Positions 1 through 13,672 of a DNA stretch of 14,161 nucleotides are shown here, piece by piece. Source of the DNA: a candidate division WOR-3 bacterium (GTDB lineage Bacteria > Hydrothermota > Tepidihabitantia > Tepidihabitantales > DTDR01); the NCBI GenBank assembly GCA_039801885.1, contig JBDRVN010000043.1:1-14161 (forward strand), read 5' to 3'. Every line of letters starts with the position of its first letter. The stretch's first letter is position 1. The position numbers were made by a program, and so were the translations under genes. The notes beneath the pieces were generated by a model that made no database searches, was not told where the DNA came from, and saw only the letters and a list, made by a program, of their open reading frames with translations.

Positions 1-1342
1 GAGGTTCAGGGGGTTCTCCACCTCCACTACCGCCGCCTCCTCCGCCGGGGTTAATCTCAAAAGAGATGGTTTTAATATCTTCTATCGGTGACTCATTTTT
101 TACACTTACAAATCTTGATTTGGCAGTAATTGTAGCTTGGTAGTTACCCATATTACTTTCGAAAAAGAGTTCATAAGAGCCGGGTTCTTTATATTCGTTA
201 TTAATTAATGTAGTTTCAGCGCGGTTGCTTGTATTTGTGACTTTTAAAGTTACATAAGCAAAATCGGTAAGTTTAAATTCAATTTTGACACTATAAGGAT
301 TAGAAGCACGAGAAGCCTTAAAATCTTTAACTTCTACTCCTAAACGATAAATTTGAATTCCACAATCCCATGTCCATCTTTCTTCACCAATAATCATTCT
401 GTCAAAATAAACCAACTTATTATTTTTTATTCCAATTGGAATAGTAATATGATTTATACCTTTGAATTGATTCCTGCCTGTTCCATAACTACCAAAAGTA
501 TAAATACTTTCACTTAAATCCTCTTTCAACCTCAAAAGTCTTGAATTAGAATTATCGGCAATCCATAAGGTTCCATCAAATTCAATGTCACTAATTTCAA
601 AATCAAAAGTTCTTTCGTTAACAAAAGTTGTCGTGTTATTATCCTTACGATGTTTTAATCTAACAATTCTTCGGCTATTACTATCTACGACATAAAGATA
701 ATATTCCTGATTATTTAAACTTCTTCCGCGGGCAATAATTCTTGGACTTTGTAGGCCCAAAAATTGTGCCTGAAAATTTCCATCATAATCAAATTTGATA
801 ATCCGATTATTAATTGAATCGCATACCCAAAAACTTCTTTCCGGACAAAGAGAATCGTTTGCCATTACTGTAATACCACAGGCACAAATTGAATAATCAT
901 ACTCTCGCACATAATCCAATTTGTCTCTATCCCAATTATATTGAAGCATAGTAATTTTTGTTTTAAAATCACCATAAGGAAGAGTGGGACTTCCCGAAGT
1001 AACAAAAAGAATCCCACCAGTATCAACAGATAAAGAATGAATTCTGAAATAATAACACCAATTAAGATTACCTGGGTAATAAAAAGCATCTATCTTCCAA
1101 TTTTTAGGGTTATTAAAATCTGTGCCAAATATTATAGGCATTCTTTTCCAATTTGGATCACCAATAATAGTCACAACTTTATTTAAATCTTTTCGACAGA
1201 CACTTGCTGAAGCCTTTGGCATACCCATAAAGAATGCTCGCCAATATTTAAGAGTAGTATCTCTTGTTGCTTTATAGGTTAAAGAAATTGTTTGAGAAAA
1301 AATAAAATTAAACAACAATAGAAATAAAGAGAAAAATCTCAT
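1..1342 (-). CDS. Secreted NHL-repeat beta-propeller protein with Ig/FlgD-like domain and Gly/Pro linker; 3'-partial (runs off window edge)
   Basis: Manually translated; absent from the ORF track because there is no stop in the window. ATG at 1342 overlaps the upstream TGA (ATGA). Open for 447 codons: signal peptide MRFFSLFLLLFNFIFSQ; NHL-like blades (FWVCDSINNRIIKFDYDGNF, LYVVDSNSRRIVRL, LWIADNSNSRLLRL, TFGSYGTGRNQF); FlgD/Ig-like segment (VKIEFKLTDFAYVTLKV...PGSYELFF); then NPGGGGGGSGGGEPPEP at the edge. Confidence 0.85.
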   Translation of the reverse strand, partial: MRFFSLFLLLFNFIFSQTISLTYKATRDTTLKYWRAFFMGMPKASASVCRKDLNKVVTIIGDPNWKRMPIIFGTDFNNPKNWKIDAFYYPGNLNWCYYFRIHSLSVDTGGILFVTSGSPTLPYGDFKTKITMLQYNWDRDKLDYVREYDYSICACGITVMANDSLCPERSFWVCDSINNRIIKFDYDGNFQAQFLGLQSPRIIARGRSLNNQEYYLYVVDSNSRRIVRLKHRKDNNTTTFVNERTFDFEISDIEFDGTLWIADNSNSRLLRLKEDLSESIYTFGSYGTGRNQFKGINHITIPIGIKNNKLVYFDRMIIGEERWTWDCGIQIYRLGVEVKDFKASRASNPYSVKIEFKLTDFAYVTLKVTNTSNRAETTLINNEYKEPGSYELFFESNMGNYQATITAKSRFVSVKNESPIEDIKTISFEINPGGGGGGSGGGEPPEP

Positions 1343-2229
1343 TTTCCTTCTAATTTCTTAATCTTCGCTTCAAACTGTTTAGTAATCATTTTTACTTCGT
1401 AATTGTAAGGATATTTTTTCTTCAATTTCTTATATAACTTGTACCCTTTTTTGGGGTCGCACATAAAATAATTTCCACAAATGTTAAATTCGTGATATTC
1501 TGTGAGAATATGATTTGGAAATTTTTTTCTCATCTTATTTAACATTTTCTCCCGTTCATAAACCCATCTCCACGGATTTTTTTTATCTTCCACATCAGTC
1601 TTTATAACTGATACCCAATTGATATAAGGAAGAAGGATAGTATCTTTATATTTTTCAATAAGTTTTTCAAGTTTTCTCCAATCGCCTCCAGACTCATAAT
1701 ATTTTATAAAATCAAAAAATTCTTTCTTTTTCTCATCTGTTGGCTCTTTAAAATAGAGAATAATACTATCCATATATCTAATAATACTGTCTCTGAATCC
1801 TTGCTTTTCTTTGATTACCAAAGGAGTCCAAATTTTAATAGGTGTATAAATAGTAAATTTTCCATATTTAAATGGTAAATATTCAAAATATGAAAATCCG
1901 GTTTTTTCCAGTAAACGAAAATCGCGATAAAAGAACGGTGGATTGATTATATAAAAAGAATCGCCCGGAAAAATAGTTATAGTTTCCCTCTTAACCCATC
2001 CTTCGATTACCAATCGGGGTATTTTATACTTCTTTCCTTCACAAATTATATAAAAATCAAAATAATCTGAGGGCCAATCCAAAATTTGCTGAAGAAAAGG
2101 TGTGTCATTTTTATAGCAGAAAATTGTAATAATGGGTTCACCAATAAAAAGGGTCTCCTTATACGCTACCCATTTGGCTTTTGAAAAGATTATATTAATC
2201 AAAAATAAAAACAAAATAATTTTTTTCAT
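1339..2229 (-). CDS. Hypothetical exported protein (signal peptide; beta-rich N-half, helical TPR-like C-half)
   Basis: 296-aa ORF; MKKIILFLFLINIIFS signal peptide; 17 nt after the upstream gene and coupled to the downstream gene by ATGA overlap. No family recognised. Confidence 0.8.
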   Translation of the reverse strand: MKKIILFLFLINIIFSKAKWVAYKETLFIGEPIITIFCYKNDTPFLQQILDWPSDYFDFYIICEGKKYKIPRLVIEGWVKRETITIFPGDSFYIINPPFFYRDFRLLEKTGFSYFEYLPFKYGKFTIYTPIKIWTPLVIKEKQGFRDSIIRYMDSIILYFKEPTDEKKKEFFDFIKYYESGGDWRKLEKLIEKYKDTILLPYINWVSVIKTDVEDKKNPWRWVYEREKMLNKMRKKFPNHILTEYHEFNICGNYFMCDPKKGYKLYKKLKKKYPYNYEVKMITKQFEAKIKKLEGK

Positions 2230-2246
2230 CTCTGTGCTTTTTAATT

Positions 2247-2987
2247 TTAAGGGTGATTACTTCCATATCTTTTAGGTAAATAATAATCACGAAACCTTTG
2301 TTTACAATTATCACAAAAGAATTGATATGTGTGGGGTTGTAAGTATGGATACATTATACATAACCACCAATCACAATGAGTAGTATCTTGTGGGTCAAAT
2401 ACATGACCTATCTCATGAGCAAGAGCCACTGCTTTTAAGTAGTCTACCTTCATGTTGTTTTGATAGAGAGCATAAATATAACCACCTGCTACTATTGAAA
2501 GAGGTGCCCAATATTCTTCTTTAACACAGAAAGTTATTCCTGCAGCATAACGACGAGTAGCAACATTATAAAGAGAATCCGCTATTAAAACATACAGACA
2601 CCAACTATCACCTTTCAAAAGCCAAGTGTCTCGATAGGTGTAATTTTGTATTAATAATCTTATTGTCTTCCTATTAATAGTATCATAATTTTCTTCAGTA
2701 GTATAGCGAAGTACAGACGGAATCACATTTTCTAAATTATTATTTTCCCCATACTCCTTTATTTCTTTTTTACCATAAATATTATTACTTTCTTTAATCG
2801 CATCAGAAATTATTCCCATAGAAACCCACTTTTCTATAGTATACTTTCTATAATCCACTTCTATACCAATTGTGGTATCCGGAATGTCTGGGATACTTCT
2901 ACTTCCACCGCCTCCGCCACCACCGCCACAATCTACCTTATAAAATAGCATAAATAATACACTTATTATTAGTAATATATATTTCAC
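2247..2987 (-). CDS. Exported/membrane-anchored zinc metalloprotease, archaemetzincin (M54)-like metzincin
   Basis: HEIGH-x8-H-C-x4-C-I-M-x12-C-x2-C motif. Start re-called to GTG 2987 (MKYILLIISVLFMLFYKVDC-G8), which gives a proper N-terminal hydrophobic signal; the track's TTG 3065 extension runs through the promoter. Confidence 0.75.
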   Translation of the reverse strand: MKYILLIISVLFMLFYKVDCGGGGGGGGSRSIPDIPDTTIGIEVDYRKYTIEKWVSMGIISDAIKESNNIYGKKEIKEYGENNNLENVIPSVLRYTTEENYDTINRKTIRLLIQNYTYRDTWLLKGDSWCLYVLIADSLYNVATRRYAAGITFCVKEEYWAPLSIVAGGYIYALYQNNMKVDYLKAVALAHEIGHVFDPQDTTHCDWWLCIMYPYLQPHTYQFFCDNCKQRFRDYYLPKRYGSNHP

Positions 2988-2993
2988 ATAAAA

Positions 2994-3019
2994 ATTATAA
3001 TCATGAAAAAAAAAGTCAA
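2994..3019 (-). promoter_or_regulatory. Sigma70-like promoter of the metalloprotease cluster (likely leaderless transcript)
   Basis: TTGACT (3019-3014), T-tract spacer, TATAAT (2999-2994), 6 nt, GTG; no SD. The spacer to TATAAT is only 14 nt (16 nt to the overlapping TAATTT). Confidence 0.55.
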
Positions 3020-3146
3020 TAAGAAAAATTAATTTTTTAATTTCAATTTCGTCCTTATTTTTCAAGGATTTTTTGAAATTATAAAAATTTATTTAACAAA
3101 ATACAATAAAAGGTATGTGAAATTATGGCAGGGAGAAATTATATTT

Positions 3147-5213
3147 TTATTTAATCTCTAAATAAGGAAAGATTTTTTTAATTTCTTCTTCCGGCAGAAT
3201 TTCATAATGGGAGAAATGCATTGAATAGGTTGCCCGACCAGAAGATAAGGAACGGATAGCAGTAGCATAGCCAAAAGTTTCTTTTAAAGGGACTATACCT
3301 GATAAGACACGATATTCTTTTATTACTTCTATATTTAACACTTTTCCCCTTCTTGCTATTAAATCATTGATAATTACACCAACATATTCTTCCGGTGTTA
3401 GAATTTCTATATTCATTATTGGTTCTAATATAGTGGGATTGGCATTTTTATAGGCTTCATTAAAGGCATTGTTAGCCGCCATTTGAAAAGCAAAATCAGA
3501 GGGGTTTTCTTTGTTATAATTACCATCAAGAATTTCAATTAAGATATTAGTTATTGGATAACCAATTAATAGACCACTATTAGCAACACCTATTAAAGTT
3601 TCTTCTATTTTCGGATAAAAAATTTCTGGAATTTTATCTTTATCAAGATTGAAAATAATATTAATTCCTCTATCTTTGGGTGATAATTTAATAGTTATTT
3701 CTGCTTGGTGTAATTTATTGTCAATTATCCGGGAGAATTTGCCAATACCGATACTCTCTTTTGTAATTGTTTCCCGATAAGATACCTGTGGTTTACCAAT
3801 ATGGCAAGGAACTTTATAGTCTCTTTGTAATCTATCGGTAATAATTTCTAAATGTAACTCACCCATTCCCATAATTATTCTTTGACCAGTTTCTTCATCG
3901 TATTTTATTTTGAATGTTGGGTCTTCAATAGAAAGAAGTTCTAAACTCTCTTGTAACTTTTTCTCATCTTTCCTTGTCTTTGGTTCAATAGTAGCAAATA
4001 TTACCGGCTCAGGAAAAGTTAAAGGTTCAAAAGCAATTGGTGCGTGTAAATCACAAAGAGTATAACCAGTTTTCACATTTTTCAATCCAACAATTGCTCC
4101 AATCTCACCGGCTTTTAACTCTTCTACTTCTTCTTGTTTATTAGCATGCATTAATAATATTTTATTTACTCTTATCTTTTCCATTGTTGGCACAACTAAG
4201 ATTTGTTTACCAATCCTAATCTTTCCGGAATATATTCGGAAATAAGAAAGCAAACCACGATTAAAATCGTTCTGGATTTTAAAAATCAGAGCAGATAAAG
4301 GCTGAGAAATATCGGCTTTTCTTTCTTCTACATTATTATTTTTTGGATGAAAACCAACTACCGGTGGTAGGTCAATTGGTGATGGCAAATAATCAACGAT
4401 TGCATCTAAAAGTGGTTGGATTCCTTTGTTTTTTAAGGCACTACCACATAATACCGGATAGAATTTCAAACTTAAAGTTCCTTTTCTTATTGCCTTTTTT
4501 ATTAAATCAATTTCTATTTCTTCTCCTTTAAGATATTTTTCTAATATCTCTTCATCTTCTTCTGATAAAATTTCTATCATTTTTTCTCTCATTAATTTTG
4601 TTTTCTCTTTATAATCATCCGGTATTGGTAATTTATCATATTTTGCTCCCAAGGTTTCTTCATACCAAATATATAAAACCTGTTCAACCAAATCGATCAC
4701 TCCTTGAAAGTATTCTTCTGCTCCATAAGGAATTTGAATAGGCAAAGGTTTTAAAGATAATCTCTCTTCCATCATTTTTATTACCCTTTCAAAGTCAGAG
4801 CCAATTCTATCAAGTTTATTAACAAAAGCAATCCTGGGAACTTTATATTTATCAGCCTGATGCCATACGGTCTCTGTTTGTGATTCTACTCCACCAACTC
4901 CACAAAAAACAATTACTGCTCCATCTAAAACTTTTAAACATCTTTCTACCTCAATTGTGAAGTCTACATGACCTGGTGTATCAATAATATTAATCTGATG
5001 GTCTTTCCAAAAACAAGTGGTGGCTGCAGAAGTAATGGTTATTCCCCTTTCCTTTTCCTGAATCATCCAGTCCATTGTAGCAGTTCCTTCATCTACTTCA
5101 CCCATTCGATAAATCTTTCCGGTATAATATAAAATCCTCTCGGTCGTTGTTGTCTTACCTGCATCAATATGAGCAGCAATCCCAATATTTCTTATTCTTT
5201 TTATATATTCCAT
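3147..5213 (-). CDS. fusA: Elongation factor G paralogue (stand-alone, divergent domain IV; EF-G2-like)
   Basis: [42 protein letters not shown] and LEPIM motifs. Start re-called to ATG 5213 ([11 protein letters not shown], 688 aa); the track's TTG 5252 is the -35 box. Confidence 0.95.
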
Positions 5214-5798: not shown

Positions 5799-5852
5799 TT
5801 GACTTTATAAAAAATATTATTAAAATATTAATGATGTATTCAAAATCGGAGG
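5799..5852 (+). promoter_or_regulatory. Promoter and RBS of the Omp28-like gene
   Basis: TTGACT (5799-5804)-16 nt-TAAAAT (5821-5826); GGAGG at 5848-5852, 5 nt before ATG 5858. Confidence 0.7.
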
Positions 5853-5857
5853 TTATT

Positions 5858-6874
5858 ATGAAAAAATACCTTCCTTTATTATTTACTTTAATTTTTATTT
5901 CTTCTCTCTATTCAGCAGAAAGGGTTGTTGTTGCTGAAGAAGCCTACCAAGAAGGTTGAGGTTCCTGTGCGACAGCCAGCAGTGTGCTGGATCAAGTAGT
6001 CTCAATATATCCAACAAGAATTGCTGCAATTGAAATGCATATCTCTTCGACTTATCCACTTTATTGTGCAGAGGCAAGAAGTAAAATGTATATGTATCCA
6101 CCTCCTTATTATTATAATGGTCAATGGTATTATGTAACTCCTTATATGTGGTACGATGGTAAAAAAGGTGGCACAAGTTATTATAATTGGCAATATCTTT
6201 TGGAACAAAGAATGGGAGTTACTTCTGATTTAAACTTTGAATTTTCCGGTTGGTATAATCCAAATACGAGAAATGGTCATATTGAATTGACAATTACTAA
6301 CGAATCTGCTAATCCAATTACTGGTCGGCTTCAATTTGTTATTACTGAAGATAGTATTTATTACTCAGCACCAAATGGCGATGTTTGGCATAATCATGTC
6401 GCAAGAGATTATCTACCCGACCATAATGGTGAAATAATTACCGTGCCAGCAAATGGTTCTATTTCCCGAAGTAGAGATTTTACTATTTCTACTAATTGGA
6501 ATCCTGATAAATGTAAAATAATTGCCTTTTTACAAGATGATAACCTTCAACCCGATTCAACAAAAGAGGTTTATCAAGGTGGAATGATTAATATTAGGGA
6601 ATTGACTGCTATTAGCGAAGTGACTAATATTTCTCCAAAACTTACTTTTATTTTCAATACCGGTAAATCAAAAATTAAATTAACCTGTGAAAACAAAGGT
6701 GAGTTTGTGCTTCAAATATTTTCTACTGACGGAAAAATTCTTCAGACAATCAAAGATTACTTTTCTGGCAAAGAGAAAGAACTTTCTCTTAATCTGAAAA
6801 CCAAAGGAATTTATTTCTACAAACTAAACTTTTCCGGTAAGGAATACCAAGGAAAACTTATTAATCTACAGTAA
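5858..6874 (+). CDS. Omp28-related thioredoxin-fold exported protein with T9SS-type C-terminal domain; candidate selenoprotein (UxxC, TGA at 5957-5959)
   Basis: MKKYLPLLFTLIFISSLYSA-ERVVVAEEAYQEG-U-GS-C-ATASSVLDQ..., in frame with the track ORF 5984..6874 (338 aa with readthrough). Omp28-like features: RVVxxEE before CxxC, IAAIEMH, TPxxxxDG (cis-Pro loop), ITEDSI, HNHVARD, IIAFLQD. CTD: IFSTDGKIL...GIYFYKLN...GKLINL. Confidence 0.85.
5960..5993 (+). promoter_or_regulatory. Putative bacterial SECIS element
   Basis: CCAGCA-GUG-UGCUGG hairpin (5976-5990) with a G-initiated apical loop 22 nt after the UGA; 20 of 31 nt in 5960-5990 are G/C in an otherwise very AT-rich gene. Confidence 0.65.
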
Positions 6875-6902: not shown

Positions 6903-6937
6903 GGGCGGAGTTCTAAATTCTCCGCCCTTTTATTTTT
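6903..6937 (+). terminator. Rho-independent terminator after the Omp28-like gene
   Basis: GGGCGGAG-9 nt loop-CTCCGCCC followed by TTTTATTTTT. Confidence 0.9.
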
Positions 6938-6946
6938 ATTAAATTA

Positions 6947-9990: not shown

Positions 9991-11334
9991 TTATTTAACA
10001 ACAATAAACTTTCTTTTTTCCTTATCAATTTTAACTACATAAATTCCTTTCTTTATTTTTCTTAAAGAAATCTTATCTCTTCTCTTTCTTAATACTAATT
10101 TTCCTGAAACATCATAAATTTCAATTTCCTCAAAATTTTTTAAAAGAGCCATATCCAAAAATGATTTTCTTATTCCCTGGGAAGTATCTATTTTATTCTT
10201 TTTGTATCCCTTTTCTTCTATAGCACTCATTGTGTCTCTTATTACGAAAAGAGAAGAATCTCGGGAATCTATTATATAAATTTGACGGGTATAAGGATTG
10301 CCAGTTATTCCGGGAGCTCCTTTTCCAAATCTTAACTGTGATATTATTGAATCATTCCGACAGTCTAAAACATAGAGAATATTATAACTATTTTTATTTT
10401 CATACCAGGAAAGAATATATAATCGGTTGCTCCATTCAGCAAAATATGTAGCAATAAAATCGGCATCGATAATTTCTATATTTTTTATTATTGAATCGGT
10501 CTCACAATCTATTATTTCTATGCAATAATTAGATGGTGAAAAACTAGGCCAATAGATTTTATTTTCATTTTTATTATAAATAATCGGTACCTCATCATTC
10601 CAGTATAAAGTGTCAAATATTTTAATTAATGTATCTCCACGGGTGCATATTACTGCTGATTTTGGTCCACCTCCTAACCACTCAGGCCCAACATATAATT
10701 TTCTGTAAAAAGAATTGTAACAAGCATTACCTGCGATTAATGGAAGGGATATTGTTTTAATCAGCGAATCACTTTCACAATCTATAACTCCCATAACATT
10801 AGCATACGCACACCCACAATAAACTTTATTACCAATTGAATCCCAACAAGTAAAATGAGAAAACCAATATTGGGGGTGGTTTATTATTTTAATTAATGAG
10901 TCAGTCTCACAATCTATTACACCAACATTTAATCCATCAACAGCATAAATTTTATCATTCATTGAATTATAACACTGTGTGGTTGGCCCACAGCTAACAA
11001 AATTAATCCATTTTATTATTGTATCTTTTTTGGTATCAATAACTAATATACTCTCAGGATTAGGATTAAAACCAAAATATATTTTATCTCTTTTTGGATT
11101 ATAGGTTCCATATGCAAAACTTGTTGGATAGTGGTGTGGAAGAGGAATAACCTTTTTTATTTCATAAGTTGAACAATCTACAACAAAAAATTGAGAACTG
11201 AATAAAACCTTTATATAAAGTTTATTTTCTTTGGAAATATAAAATAAACTTAATGGCCAATCATTAAGACGAACAACTGTATCAATTATTTGAGGAAAAA
11301 TAAAAAATGGAAAAAGGAAAATAAAATATCTCAT
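9991..11334 (-). CDS. Secreted YVTN/YncE-family beta-propeller protein with T9SS-type C-terminal domain
   Basis: About 7 repeats of YNxxxxKIY...VIDCETDSLIKxI; short signal-like N-terminus; C-terminal IEIYDVSGKLV...GIYVVKI...KFIVVK. Confidence 0.85.
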   Translation of the reverse strand: MRYFIFLFPFFIFPQIIDTVVRLNDWPLSLFYISKENKLYIKVLFSSQFFVVDCSTYEIKKVIPLPHHYPTSFAYGTYNPKRDKIYFGFNPNPESILVIDTKKDTIIKWINFVSCGPTTQCYNSMNDKIYAVDGLNVGVIDCETDSLIKIINHPQYWFSHFTCWDSIGNKVYCGCAYANVMGVIDCESDSLIKTISLPLIAGNACYNSFYRKLYVGPEWLGGGPKSAVICTRGDTLIKIFDTLYWNDEVPIIYNKNENKIYWPSFSPSNYCIEIIDCETDSIIKNIEIIDADFIATYFAEWSNRLYILSWYENKNSYNILYVLDCRNDSIISQLRFGKGAPGITGNPYTRQIYIIDSRDSSLFVIRDTMSAIEEKGYKKNKIDTSQGIRKSFLDMALLKNFEEIEIYDVSGKLVLRKRRDKISLRKIKKGIYVVKIDKEKRKFIVVK

Positions 11335-11377: not shown

Positions 11378-13006
11378 TTAGTTAATTATTACTTTGATCT
11401 TTTCTTGCTTTTCTTTCAAATTAATCATAATAAAATAAACACCGGAAGAAACGTTTCTTCCTTTTTCATTCTTTTTATTCCATATTAATTGGTGTTCTCC
11501 TTTTTCCATCTTCCCTTTAAAAATTGATTTCACTTTTTCACCATAAAAATTATAAACTGAGATTTCTACGTAAGATGGGATAGAAAGAAGATAAGAAATT
11601 TTAACACCTTTTTTATCTAAGAAGAATTTTTTCTTAATAGCTAAAATTGTATTTTGTAATTGCGAACTTTCGCTACCGCTTTCAATAGAGTCATCTTCTT
11701 CAAACCCCGGAGAAGGATTTACATAAAAACTGTTTCTATCTCTACCAATAATTAAATAAGCATCCTTATTAATTGGGTCAAAAGTAATAGAGGCTCCTGT
11801 ATCTAATATAGCTGGTAATTGGTCGCTATGCATAATCCATCTGCCAGCAGGTGCTCCCGGATAACGTGTCTTATATATATAATGATGGTTCCGCGAATTA
11901 CTGTGTCCAAATACTGCAAGAAGTTTTCGATAATATCCTGGTCCATCCTGATAACAAGATGTAAGTGAAGAACCAGCATTTTGTCTTAAAGGAGAAGTTG
12001 CGAGCGGTAAGAGCCTCCAATAATTGGAATGTATTGAGTAGCAATAAAAATTTTCTCTACCACCTCCTATAAGACAGTAAACACTTTCTGCTTTTGCCTC
12101 TTCTCCTTCTTTATGATAAGCAATTGAAGCACCTACTTTAACAGACTCAGGAATATCTGTTTTTCTAAGCCAATTATAATCAATAGTAAATTTTCTTATT
12201 TCGCTCCATAAAGAGTTGGATGAGCGGGTTCGCCAATAATAAATTCCTGGCGTAAAAATTATATTGGATGAAAAAATATTTTTATCACTTATAATATCTA
12301 TTATTGGAGAAGAAAAATCCAAATTATCATCTACTTGAAGTTGATAATAAGAAGCCATTGTGTCTCTTTTCCAACTGAATAATATTTCTATTGCATCTAA
12401 TATTGTATCGTTTGGTGGGAAAATGTCATCGCAAACCTGTTGAGCAAGTAATTTTTTAAAAGGAAGACAGTAAAACTCATTTTCTATTGCAAGATATAAC
12501 TCTCCAACAAGAACACTAATTATTATATTAGGAGGCGGTGGAGAAGAAGGTTCTACTGGTCTAAAGGTAATTCCTACAGCAGGATTACCTATCGGTATTT
12601 CTCTAGGAAGTAAGATCCCTCGCGACCATCTTCCGTTACAACCTGTATCATAAGTAAACGAATAAAGAAAAAGTGAATCTGGAAAATTTAAAAGTTGTAA
12701 AACAACGAATATTTTTTCAAAATCCAATCCACCTTTTCCATAAGTTATTGCATCTCCACAATAAATTTCATAACGGGATACTGGAAGAAAAGATAATTCC
12801 TGCCAATGTTCCCTTTTAATATTGTAAGCATAAAAATAGTCCCAATATCTTCCGCATATTAAAAAAATATATCCTCTACCATAAGTAACACCTGCGCCAG
12901 CCCTCGCAGTAGTAGGATAGGGAATAGGTGGCAAAGGTATCCAGTCTCCCAATAAAGTGGAAAAAAGAATTAATGAAATACATATTATTAAAAATATATT
13001 TTTCAT
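11378..13006 (-). CDS. Secreted Kelch-like repeat protein with internal Fn3/Ig-like domain and FlgD-Ig/T9SS C-terminal domain
   Basis: AGGAGG SD; signal peptide; Kelch-like blades (GAGVTY..IFLICG..FYAYNIKREHWQEL; GASIAY..VYCLIGGG..FYCYSIHSNYW); FSW...YQLQVDDNLDFSSP...YYWRTR...WSEIRKFTI; C-terminal VYNFYGEKVK...GEHQLIWN...GRNVSSGVYF. Confidence 0.85.
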   Translation of the reverse strand: MKNIFLIICISLILFSTLLGDWIPLPPIPYPTTARAGAGVTYGRGYIFLICGRYWDYFYAYNIKREHWQELSFLPVSRYEIYCGDAITYGKGGLDFEKIFVVLQLLNFPDSLFLYSFTYDTGCNGRWSRGILLPREIPIGNPAVGITFRPVEPSSPPPPNIIISVLVGELYLAIENEFYCLPFKKLLAQQVCDDIFPPNDTILDAIEILFSWKRDTMASYYQLQVDDNLDFSSPIIDIISDKNIFSSNIIFTPGIYYWRTRSSNSLWSEIRKFTIDYNWLRKTDIPESVKVGASIAYHKEGEEAKAESVYCLIGGGRENFYCYSIHSNYWRLLPLATSPLRQNAGSSLTSCYQDGPGYYRKLLAVFGHSNSRNHHYIYKTRYPGAPAGRWIMHSDQLPAILDTGASITFDPINKDAYLIIGRDRNSFYVNPSPGFEEDDSIESGSESSQLQNTILAIKKKFFLDKKGVKISYLLSIPSYVEISVYNFYGEKVKSIFKGKMEKGEHQLIWNKKNEKGRNVSSGVYFIMINLKEKQEKIKVIIN

Positions 13007-13276: not shown

Positions 13277-13672
13277 ATGTATTGCCGAAGTTGCGGAAAG
13301 GAAATAAGTGATGTTGCGGAGTTTTGTATTCATTGTGGTGCAAGACCTTTAAAAGGAAGAAAATATTGTCAAAATTGTGGAAGCGAAGTAAATCCAGAAG
13401 CAGAGATTTGTGTTAAATGTGGCGTGAGATTGTTAACAGAAAAGAAAAAAGAAAAAGAGGAAGGGCAAAAAGATTGGCTTGTTGCTTTGTTACTTTCCAT
13501 CTTCCTTGGTGGATTAGGGGTTGACCGATTTTATCTTGGTTATATTGGTTTAGGAATTTTGAAATTGTTAACTTGCGGTGGCTTTGGAATCTGGTGGTTG
13601 ATTGATTTAATTCTGATTGCCACAAATCGATTAAAGGATGCTGAAGGAAGAGAACTTTATAAAAGTGTCTAA
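13277..13672 (+). CDS. Double zinc-ribbon + TM2 domain membrane protein
   Basis: Four CxxCG knuckles (CRSCG, CIHCG, CQNCG, CVKCG) then [24 protein letters not shown]...[13 protein letters not shown]2 signature. Confidence 0.92.

Follow-up and report, generated by a model that had tools for sequence, protein, structure and literature searches.

An Omp28-related protein with a predicted selenocysteine and a type IX secretion sorting domain, encoded across an in-frame TGA in a candidate division WOR-3 bacterium

The DNA analysed here is a stretch of 14,161 nucleotides (30.8% G+C) from a candidate division WOR-3 bacterium, and this whole stretch is referred to below as the window. On its forward strand, positions 5858 to 6874 hold a frame of 338 amino acids plus a stop codon that is crossed by a single in-frame TGA (5957-5959). 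This frame is proposed to be the full coding sequence of an exported Omp28-related selenoprotein precursor, with the TGA read as selenocysteine (Sec) at residue 34, the first position of a UxxC motif. We put the probability of this reading, together with the mechanism proposed for it below, at roughly 0.8. Its core is supported because the TGA is conserved among relatives, Sec and Cys forms pair at the same column, a hairpin resembling a bacterial selenocysteine insertion sequence (SECIS) follows the TGA, starts are found upstream of it, and a fold model and matches to a C-terminal domain (CTD) of the type IX secretion system (T9SS) agree with it.

The frame opens with ATG (5858-5860), which lies 5 nt behind a Shine-Dalgarno sequence GGAGG (5848-5852). 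Ahead of the TGA are 33 codons, encoding MKKYLPLLFTLIFISSLYSAERVVVAEEAYQEG, and when 5858-6874 is translated with the TGA as a residue the N-terminus reads MKKYLPLLFTLIFISSLYSA-ERVVVAEEAYQEG. Judged by eye, its first 20 or so residues (5858-5917) form a probable signal peptide, with a lysine pair, a hydrophobic core and the ending LYSA but without a lipobox Cys, and this element is visible only when the TGA is read through. The TGA is followed by GGT TCC TGT, giving G-S-C, of which the TGT (5966-5968) is invariant in the read-through alignment of the family (alignment A3) and would provide Cys37, the resolving Cys of the UxxC motif. From the TGA onwards 304 codons are open, ending at TAA (6872-6874). 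Gene callers using translation table 11 instead give a shortened open reading frame (ORF) of 296 amino acids (5984-6874) from a GTG start. An earlier note, made from the letters of the DNA, had already described the GGAGG, the ATG at 5858, the in-frame TGA followed by GS-C and the 304 intact codons, and all of these stand on re-reading and translating the window. It had also described a promoter. A sigma-70-like candidate is indeed present at 5799-5826 (TTGACT-16 nt-TAAAAT, 10 of 12 consensus matches), although it is weak when taken alone, and such sites are no commoner in this A+T-rich region than in shuffled sequence (15 versus 12.2 +/- 3.2). Downstream, an intrinsic terminator is found at 6903-6940, with an 8-bp G+C stem (6903-6910/6920-6927), a 9-nt loop and a T-rich tail. 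Its hairpin (6903-6927) has a folding energy of -16.6 kcal/mol (z -4.47), with 1 of 200 shuffles equally stable; the consensus terminator scan overlooked it, as the loop limit of that scan was 8 nt.

When 5.8 billion protein clusters were searched, the read-through protein gave 160 matches; alignment A1 was made from them, and the named ones are mostly from candidate division WOR-3. At the DNA level, one genome per species was searched, giving 35 loci (L001-L035). All 32 loci whose sequence extends over the site (L001-L032) have TGA at this column, which makes 33 of 33 genes with the window included. TAA or TAG never takes its place, and in those 32 loci it is the first in-frame stop after the upstream start. 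A second Omp28-like gene lies in tandem directly downstream in six loci (L011 5247, L012 5228, L013 2317, L015 1316, L016 5277 and L020 3840), and each of these copies has TGA at the same column together with a GCCAGUGGGACACUGGC-type hairpin, bringing the total to 39 of 39 genes. Identity among the TGA-bearing proteins reaches down to 34%, and five metagenome-assembled genomes (MAGs) hold two or three copies on separate contigs. The presence of TGA at one column in 33 of 33 genes and in six tandem paralogues is far beyond chance and, judged from these alignments, the TGA is no lesion. The earlier note had reckoned with orthologues that would all carry Cys and a TGA unique to this strain, which is not what was found. 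In the 33rd locus (L033) the match does not begin until residue 106, and a stop lies shortly before it. It should also be mentioned that the copy at L024 (115-894, on a contig of 2352 nt) runs for 259 residues to a second TGA and is without the CTD, which may reflect a truncation or a second recoding event.

The upstream part of the gene is found in the relatives as well. Upstream of the TGA, 28 of the 32 loci have an ATG with an N-terminus that resembles a signal peptide, mostly behind a GGAG-type stretch. As for the remaining four, GTG would be the start in L009 and L017, the ATG of L008 is preceded by GGGGG, and a run of N is present in L022. By eye, and without a tally, most of the related loci have a purine-rich stretch resembling GGAGG or GGAG within 20 nt before the ATG.

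In more distant homologues the column is occupied by Cys. This is the case in L034 (Neomarinimicrobiota) and L035 (Bacteroidia), and the Marinimicrobia relatives of L034 are all of full length with Cys at both motif positions (39 of 39). A profile of alignment A3 run over 1.84 billion representatives matched 243,481 of them at E <= 1e-3, many by virtue of the CTD only, and 11,555 at 1e-10 and 527 at 1e-30. By profile coordinates, the best 150 representatives divide into 72 that cover the column, 45 that start immediately past it, 24 that start further inside and 9 of other kinds. Aligned residue by residue, 73 of these 150 fill at least one of the two motif positions and 77 fill neither, and the 73 comprise 69 with CxxC, one each with SxxS, QxxC and VxxC, and one with the second Cys only. 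The proposal that the TGA falls on the N-terminal Cys of a CxxC motif, and that TGA/Cys pairs would be met at this column in related genomes, is thus borne out by 39 TGA-bearing genes on the one side and, on the other, by Cys in 69 of the 73 representatives and in every Marinimicrobia relative. At L019, a Cys-form paralogue of 618 amino acids (1730-3535) with the motif WCPYC and an InhA-like MAM domain adjoins the Sec-form gene. The representative with SxxS is P0252.

Downstream of the TGA, a SECIS-like hairpin of the bacterial type is found at 5976-5990, consisting of a 6-bp stem CCAGCA/UGCUGG (5976-5981/5985-5990) and a loop GUG (5982-5984). The stem begins 16 nt past the UGA, the spacing from UGA to loop is 22 nt and the folding energy is -9.1 kcal/mol. 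In a gap-free alignment of 33 genes (alignment A2), 85.7% of cells are paired compared with 17-43% when the 3' side is slid, and compensatory pairs occur at positions 30-36 (CG 17, UA 11, UG 3) and 31-35 (GC 15, AU 9, GU 2). The covariation score was reached by none of 500 shuffles, RNAalifold recovers the same helix, and the covarying columns 30 and 36 each fall on the third position of a codon. The codons that form the hairpin (GCC-AGC-AGT-GTG-CTG) include several that are rare elsewhere in the window, with CTG used for 6 of 364 Leu, AGC for 10 of 214 Ser, GTG for 17 of 200 Val and GCC for 33 of 179 Ala. As stated in a 2026 review (PMC13188914), bacterial SECIS elements have a loop of 3-9 nt, a stem of 4-16 bp and a G in the first two loop positions, lie 16-37 nt from the UGA and have a minimum free energy of -7.5 kcal/mol or lower. 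All of these hold for the window hairpin and for 37 of the 39 genes in total, L015 and L024 failing in their minimum-energy folds. At the corresponding site, two of the three Cys-form genes are without a hairpin (0.0 and -0.4 kcal/mol), versus a mean of -9.55 kcal/mol for 32 Sec forms. The case for the hairpin is one of comparison and not of energy, because the folding energy by itself is not significant.

The protein encoded by the full frame appears to be modular, with three parts. These are a thioredoxin-like domain (residues ~22-120, 5921-6217) recognised from the model and from profile and structure matches, the beta-sandwich part of an Omp28 domain (residues ~125-245, 6230-6592) recognised from PF11551, 2r2c and the model, and a T9SS type A C-terminal sorting domain (residues ~265-336, 6650-6865) recognised from TIGR04183 and CTD chains in the PDB. 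PF11551 (Omp28) matches residues 93-234 with 64 bits (cut-off 34.9) and TIGR04183 (T9SS type A sorting domain) matches residues 273-335 with 26.4 bits (cut-off 23), the latter family also matching 30 of 33 family members. NF045500, named 'Omp28-related selenoprotein' in NCBIfam, matches 32 of the 33, with a best E-value of 3.8e-20. An AlphaFold model built on alignment A3 has a predicted local distance difference test score (pLDDT) of 88.5 and a predicted template modelling score of 0.70; the linker at 254-264 is of low confidence (pLDDT <50), and the CTD, which is modelled as a beta-sandwich (265-336), has blocks scoring 82-92 from residue 271 on. In this model U34-x-x-C37 lies between a strand (24-30) and a helix (37-50), more elements of thioredoxin type follow, and T94-P95 (6137-6142) lies just before a further strand (96-99), with P95 invariant and T94 at least 90% conserved. 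When the profile was searched against PDB sequences, 2axo (Atu2684, DUF1223) was matched with an E-value of 1.7e-7 and with its GCASC aligned to the motif (GCgsC), along with PorU and CTD chains, the Omp28 structure 2r2c (on profile positions 91-243) and, weakly, thioredoxins. Foldseek placed HBP35 (5y1a) first (E 1.4e-14) and 2axo second (E 2.5e-9). A single-sequence PDB search with the N-terminal domain gave thioredoxin only at a non-significant E-value of 0.48. The expectations of the earlier note, namely a 338-aa Omp28-like protein of thioredoxin fold with the UxxC at the N-terminus of a helix and a T9SS-type CTD, all find agreement in these matches and in the model.

Outside the redox motif, a number of polar residues are invariant or nearly so, namely H61, E164-D165-S166, W177-H178-N179-H180 and R183 (nt ~6038-6406), most of them lying in blocks reading ITEDS and WHNHVARD. 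These residues may form a second functional site, for example for a metal or haem. Elsewhere in the window, the ORF at 9991-11334 on the minus strand passes the T9SS CTD cut-offs, and that at 11378-13006, also on the minus strand, has sub-threshold matches to CHU_C and to the PorZ tail. Such T9SS-type tails are consistent with the presence of a T9SS in this organism.

A family of this kind has been described before. Under the name 'hypothetical protein GOS_C' it was introduced as a new family in the 2008 GOS study of Zhang & Gladyshev (PMC2398784), which describes 74 Sec sequences and 312 Cys homologues with a thioredoxin-like fold, a UxxC motif and SECIS-like elements, functional evidence not being part of that description, and in the table of the 2026 review (PMC13188914) NF045500 is the entry that stands for GOS_C, UxxC being given as its motif. 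Like the members of GOS_C/NF045500, the window protein is Omp28-related, has a thioredoxin-like fold with a predicted Sec first in UxxC, has many Cys homologues and has a SECIS-like hairpin after the UGA. It differs in scoring under the family cut-off, so that it is not an equivalog, and in coming from WOR-3/'Stahlbacteria' MAGs rather than from ocean-surface reads. That the Sec columns of the two are the same is deduced from the common UxxC and fold, and not from an alignment with a member; the L034 query for a sequence named after NF045500 returned only Cys-form Marinimicrobia proteins.

Among characterised proteins, the top Foldseek match is HBP35 of Porphyromonas gingivalis, which has a signal peptide (a probable one in the window protein) and shares with the window protein a thioredoxin-like domain with a dithiol motif and a T9SS CTD, but has Cys in place of Sec and is only 14% identical. 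The two superpose with TM scores of 0.54/0.58 and a root-mean-square deviation of 10.9 A, which indicates that the orientation of the domains differs. HBP35 is described as having thioredoxin activity in vitro that needs its two Cys, as binding hemin and as having a modified form on the cell surface, with its C-terminal domain proposed to serve in surface attachment (PMC2907840). The window protein is also above the cut-off of the Omp28 family that includes 2r2c (PF11551, as above), while it differs from the Omp28 lipoproteins (NF033782) in scoring under their cut-off, in having no Cys among residues 1-33 and in having a T9SS CTD where these have lipid anchoring. The DUF1223 protein Atu2684 (PF06764, 2axo) corresponds in its N-terminal thioredoxin-like part, its GCASC falling on U/C-x-x-C, but has Cys and is without the CTD; the Marinimicrobia Cys homologues are likewise tagged PF06764. 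With the thioredoxin-fold UxxC selenoproteins in general (thioredoxin-like, Prx-like and DsbA-like forms, GOS catalogue) it shares a predicted Sec at the N-terminal position of a CxxC-type motif at the start of helix 1, and U34 is aligned to the first Cys of WCGPC of E. coli thioredoxin in the non-significant match mentioned above. It differs from them in being multi-domain, in its predicted export and in its T9SS tag.

All tests run support the earlier core reading of a 338-aa exported selenoprotein with Sec at the N-terminal position of UxxC. Several observations nevertheless weigh against it, the first of which concern the decoding machinery. No selA, selB, selD or tRNA-Sec gene was found in the window, ARAGORN found no tRNA-Sec in the 35 loci, its hits there being limited to a tmRNA (L002) and a tRNA-Leu (L020), and among 104 neighbour ORFs scanned with Pfam (no more than two per side, from the 31 loci yielding any) there was no sel gene. 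The hairpin is of ordinary stability, the 23-nt piece having a z of -1.87 with 12 of 200 shuffles as stable and longer pieces a z near 0, and its conservation could partly stem from the conserved A-S-x-x-L peptide that it encodes. A SECIS match was not obtained from Rfam, either with the whole window at the gathering threshold or with 5900-6060 at E <= 10. The third Cys form, the L019 paralogue, has a hairpin of -8.6 kcal/mol at the SECIS place, which may be a relic of a change from Sec to Cys or may be due to chance. Two full-length relatives (P0183 and P0223) have Q or V at the Sec/Cys column (x-D-S-C), so that the nucleophile would be missing, and the site would then not be indispensable everywhere. 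Among the domain matches, PF18962 (residues 272-335, 24.4 bits) is just under its cut-off of 27, and the scores for NF045500 (residues 20-250, 61.5 bits versus 200, E 8.6e-17) and for the Omp28 lipoprotein family NF033782 (residues 19-229, 63.2 bits versus 150) are far under theirs. Lastly, GOS_C, as described in PMC2398784, is itself a computational family. The only Rfam matches obtained were to GABA3 and ZFAT-AS1, two in all, and these were dismissed as being at chance level.

The alternative that fares best, although it is still improbable, is that the UGA is decoded as something other than Sec, by near-cognate read-through (to Trp, Cys or Arg) stimulated by the hairpin or by another form of recoding, with no Sec machinery involved. 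The failure to find such machinery in the window or in the flanks of the loci examined speaks in favour of this, as does a hairpin that is short and thermodynamically unremarkable. It is harder to reconcile with a column that is the nucleophilic Cys of CxxC in the homologues, which is the classical Sec/Cys signature, with a hairpin that in 37 of 39 genes conforms to the constraints published for bacterial SECIS elements, and with a related UxxC family that has already been catalogued as a selenoprotein. In addition, Trp or Arg at the site would destroy the motif.

It is very unlikely, by our estimate only half as probable as the preceding alternative, that the annotation is correct and that the protein of 296 residues starts at GTG 5984, the upstream 33 codons being a separate short ORF or an untranslated leader. 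Public predictions for the family do begin after the TGA. The best 120 of the 160 protein matches are of 198-309 aa, cover at most 88% of the query each and are all without the N-terminus, the three proteins matched with residues 1-75 as the query are all truncated forms, and 45 of the best 150 representatives start just past the column; no public prediction that we found for the WOR-3 branch includes the active site. The starts predicted within the homologues, however, are M, V or L at varying positions, as is expected of gene-caller artefacts. GTG 5984 has no GGAGG in front of it, as the earlier note had pointed out, and this start (5984-5986) overlaps the apical loop and the 3' stem of the SECIS-like hairpin. 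Its product would be without a signal peptide and yet have a T9SS export domain, and its thioredoxin fold would be missing both strand 1 and the redox motif. Upstream of the TGA, moreover, 32 loci share ERVVV-EE-Y-E as a conserved in-frame peptide, which is continuous with the Cys-form homologues.

A pseudogene, or an assembly or sequencing error by which a Cys codon recently became a nonsense codon, is hardly credible. A single TGA, counted here as one transition away from TGT/TGC, is what such a lesion would look like, and the window by itself would allow it, but the TGA recurs in 39 of 39 genes from independent assemblies and down to 34% identity, is followed by 304 intact codons and is accompanied by a conserved hairpin. 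It is just as implausible that TGA has been reassigned throughout the genome (as in NCBI tables 4 or 25), a reading with nothing more than the open frame in its favour. The window's 11 other ORFs, which include those for EF-G (701 aa) and urocanase (565 aa), have 66 TGG for Trp and no in-frame TGA, and TGA ends the ORF at 1339-2229 and is the true terminator of family genes in five loci (L009, L015, L017, L031 and L032). Of the nine complete ends of those other ORFs, eight are TAA and one is TGA (1339-1341, minus strand). TGA is an ordinary stop elsewhere in the window, given the ORFs free of it and the one that ends in it, in keeping with the site-specific recoding that had been suggested earlier.

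With Sec at the TGA as the preferred reading, the following sequence of events is proposed. A single mRNA would run from the gene's own promoter to the terminator at 6903-6927, and its translation would start at ATG 5858. At UGA 5957-5959, a SelB-type factor carrying Sec-tRNA(Sec), recruited by the hairpin at 5976-5990, would insert Sec34; we infer the identity of this residue from the conserved TGA, the Cys homologues and the covarying hairpin. The signal peptide would direct the precursor to the Sec pathway across the inner membrane, with cleavage near residue 20, and the T9SS domain (residues ~265-336) would then carry it through the outer membrane, after which it would be set free or become anchored at the surface as HBP35 is, a route suggested by the domain matches. 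There, U34-G-S-C37 would cycle between a selenol/thiol and a selenenylsulfide, and the protein, a thioredoxin-like domain fused to an Omp28-type beta-sandwich, would act as an extracytoplasmic oxidoreductase of the thiol-disulfide type. It would belong to a WOR-3/'Stahlbacteria' branch of the Omp28-related UxxC selenoproteins (GOS_C, NF045500) in which Sec appears to be fixed, often with several paralogues per genome.

As to novelty, the earlier note had cautiously suggested that Omp28 was not among the known bacterial selenoprotein families. This does not hold, as an Omp28-related UxxC selenoprotein was already published as GOS_C (PMC2398784). Literature searches found no paper pairing Omp28 with a selenoprotein by name, no description of a T9SS selenoprotein, and nothing relevant on WOR-3 with selenocysteine or sel genes; a paper on Lost City mentions SelA/SelB only for glycine-reductase MAGs and makes no tie to WOR-3. 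What is new is the WOR-3/'Stahlbacteria' branch itself, divergent from NF045500 and with an HBP35-like T9SS architecture. Going by the sequences compared here, it is also new that Sec is apparently fixed in every copy seen, that several genomes have paralogues and that every member seen is truncated in public annotation.

The genomic context of the gene varies across the family. No partner gene was conserved in the Pfam scan of the 104 neighbour ORFs, so the context offers no clue to the substrate, and synteny is found within sub-clades only, as with hutU and a PEMT-like gene, which are present in L001 as in the window. In L003, L005 and L008 a MoxR-type AAA ATPase and DUF58 lie downstream of the gene, and in L007, L009, L010, L014, L018, L022 and L032 the flanks hold a major facilitator superfamily (MFS) transporter upstream and/or AICARFT/IMPCHase downstream. 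The tmRNA gene of L002 (3623-3972, tag ANSGYRLAA) lies close upstream of the selenoprotein gene, with about 30 nt between the two.

Other genes of the window include two ORFs on the minus strand downstream of EF-G (2247-3065 and 1339-2229) that have no Pfam or NCBIfam match. The former has a run of eight Gly and a zincin-like HEIGH motif, and the latter, which overlaps the next ORF by ATGA, carries the only TGA stop of the window. At 13277-13672 on the plus strand lies a gene for a double zinc-ribbon and TM2 protein; it is without an in-frame TGA and weakly matches NF049953, 'zinc ribbon-containing (seleno)protein DG' (24 bits versus a cut-off of 130).

The finding reveals no new kind of recoding and no new selenoprotein fold. 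It does present a well-supported case of a selenoprotein gene that automated annotation has shortened, the best 120 homologues being without both signal peptide and active site, and with the corrected gene model what appeared to be a cytoplasmic fragment with an orphan export tag becomes a predicted exported redox enzyme. Decoding of Sec by WOR-3 bacteria is thereby implied, and GOS_C/NF045500 gains a new lineage of phylum level and a T9SS cargo architecture, a branch that the current NCBIfam cut-off misses. The chief benefit lies in correcting the annotation and the coverage of that model. A broader proposal, which we hold tentatively and at somewhat less than even odds, is that the WOR-3/'Stahlbacteria' display a T9SS-exported, HBP35-like selenoenzyme on or beyond the outer membrane, with Sec as its nucleophile in 39 of 39 copies. 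If this were true, it would mean that the whole lineage requires extracellular selenol chemistry, for instance to acquire haem or metals, or to handle disulfides or polysulfides outside the cell.

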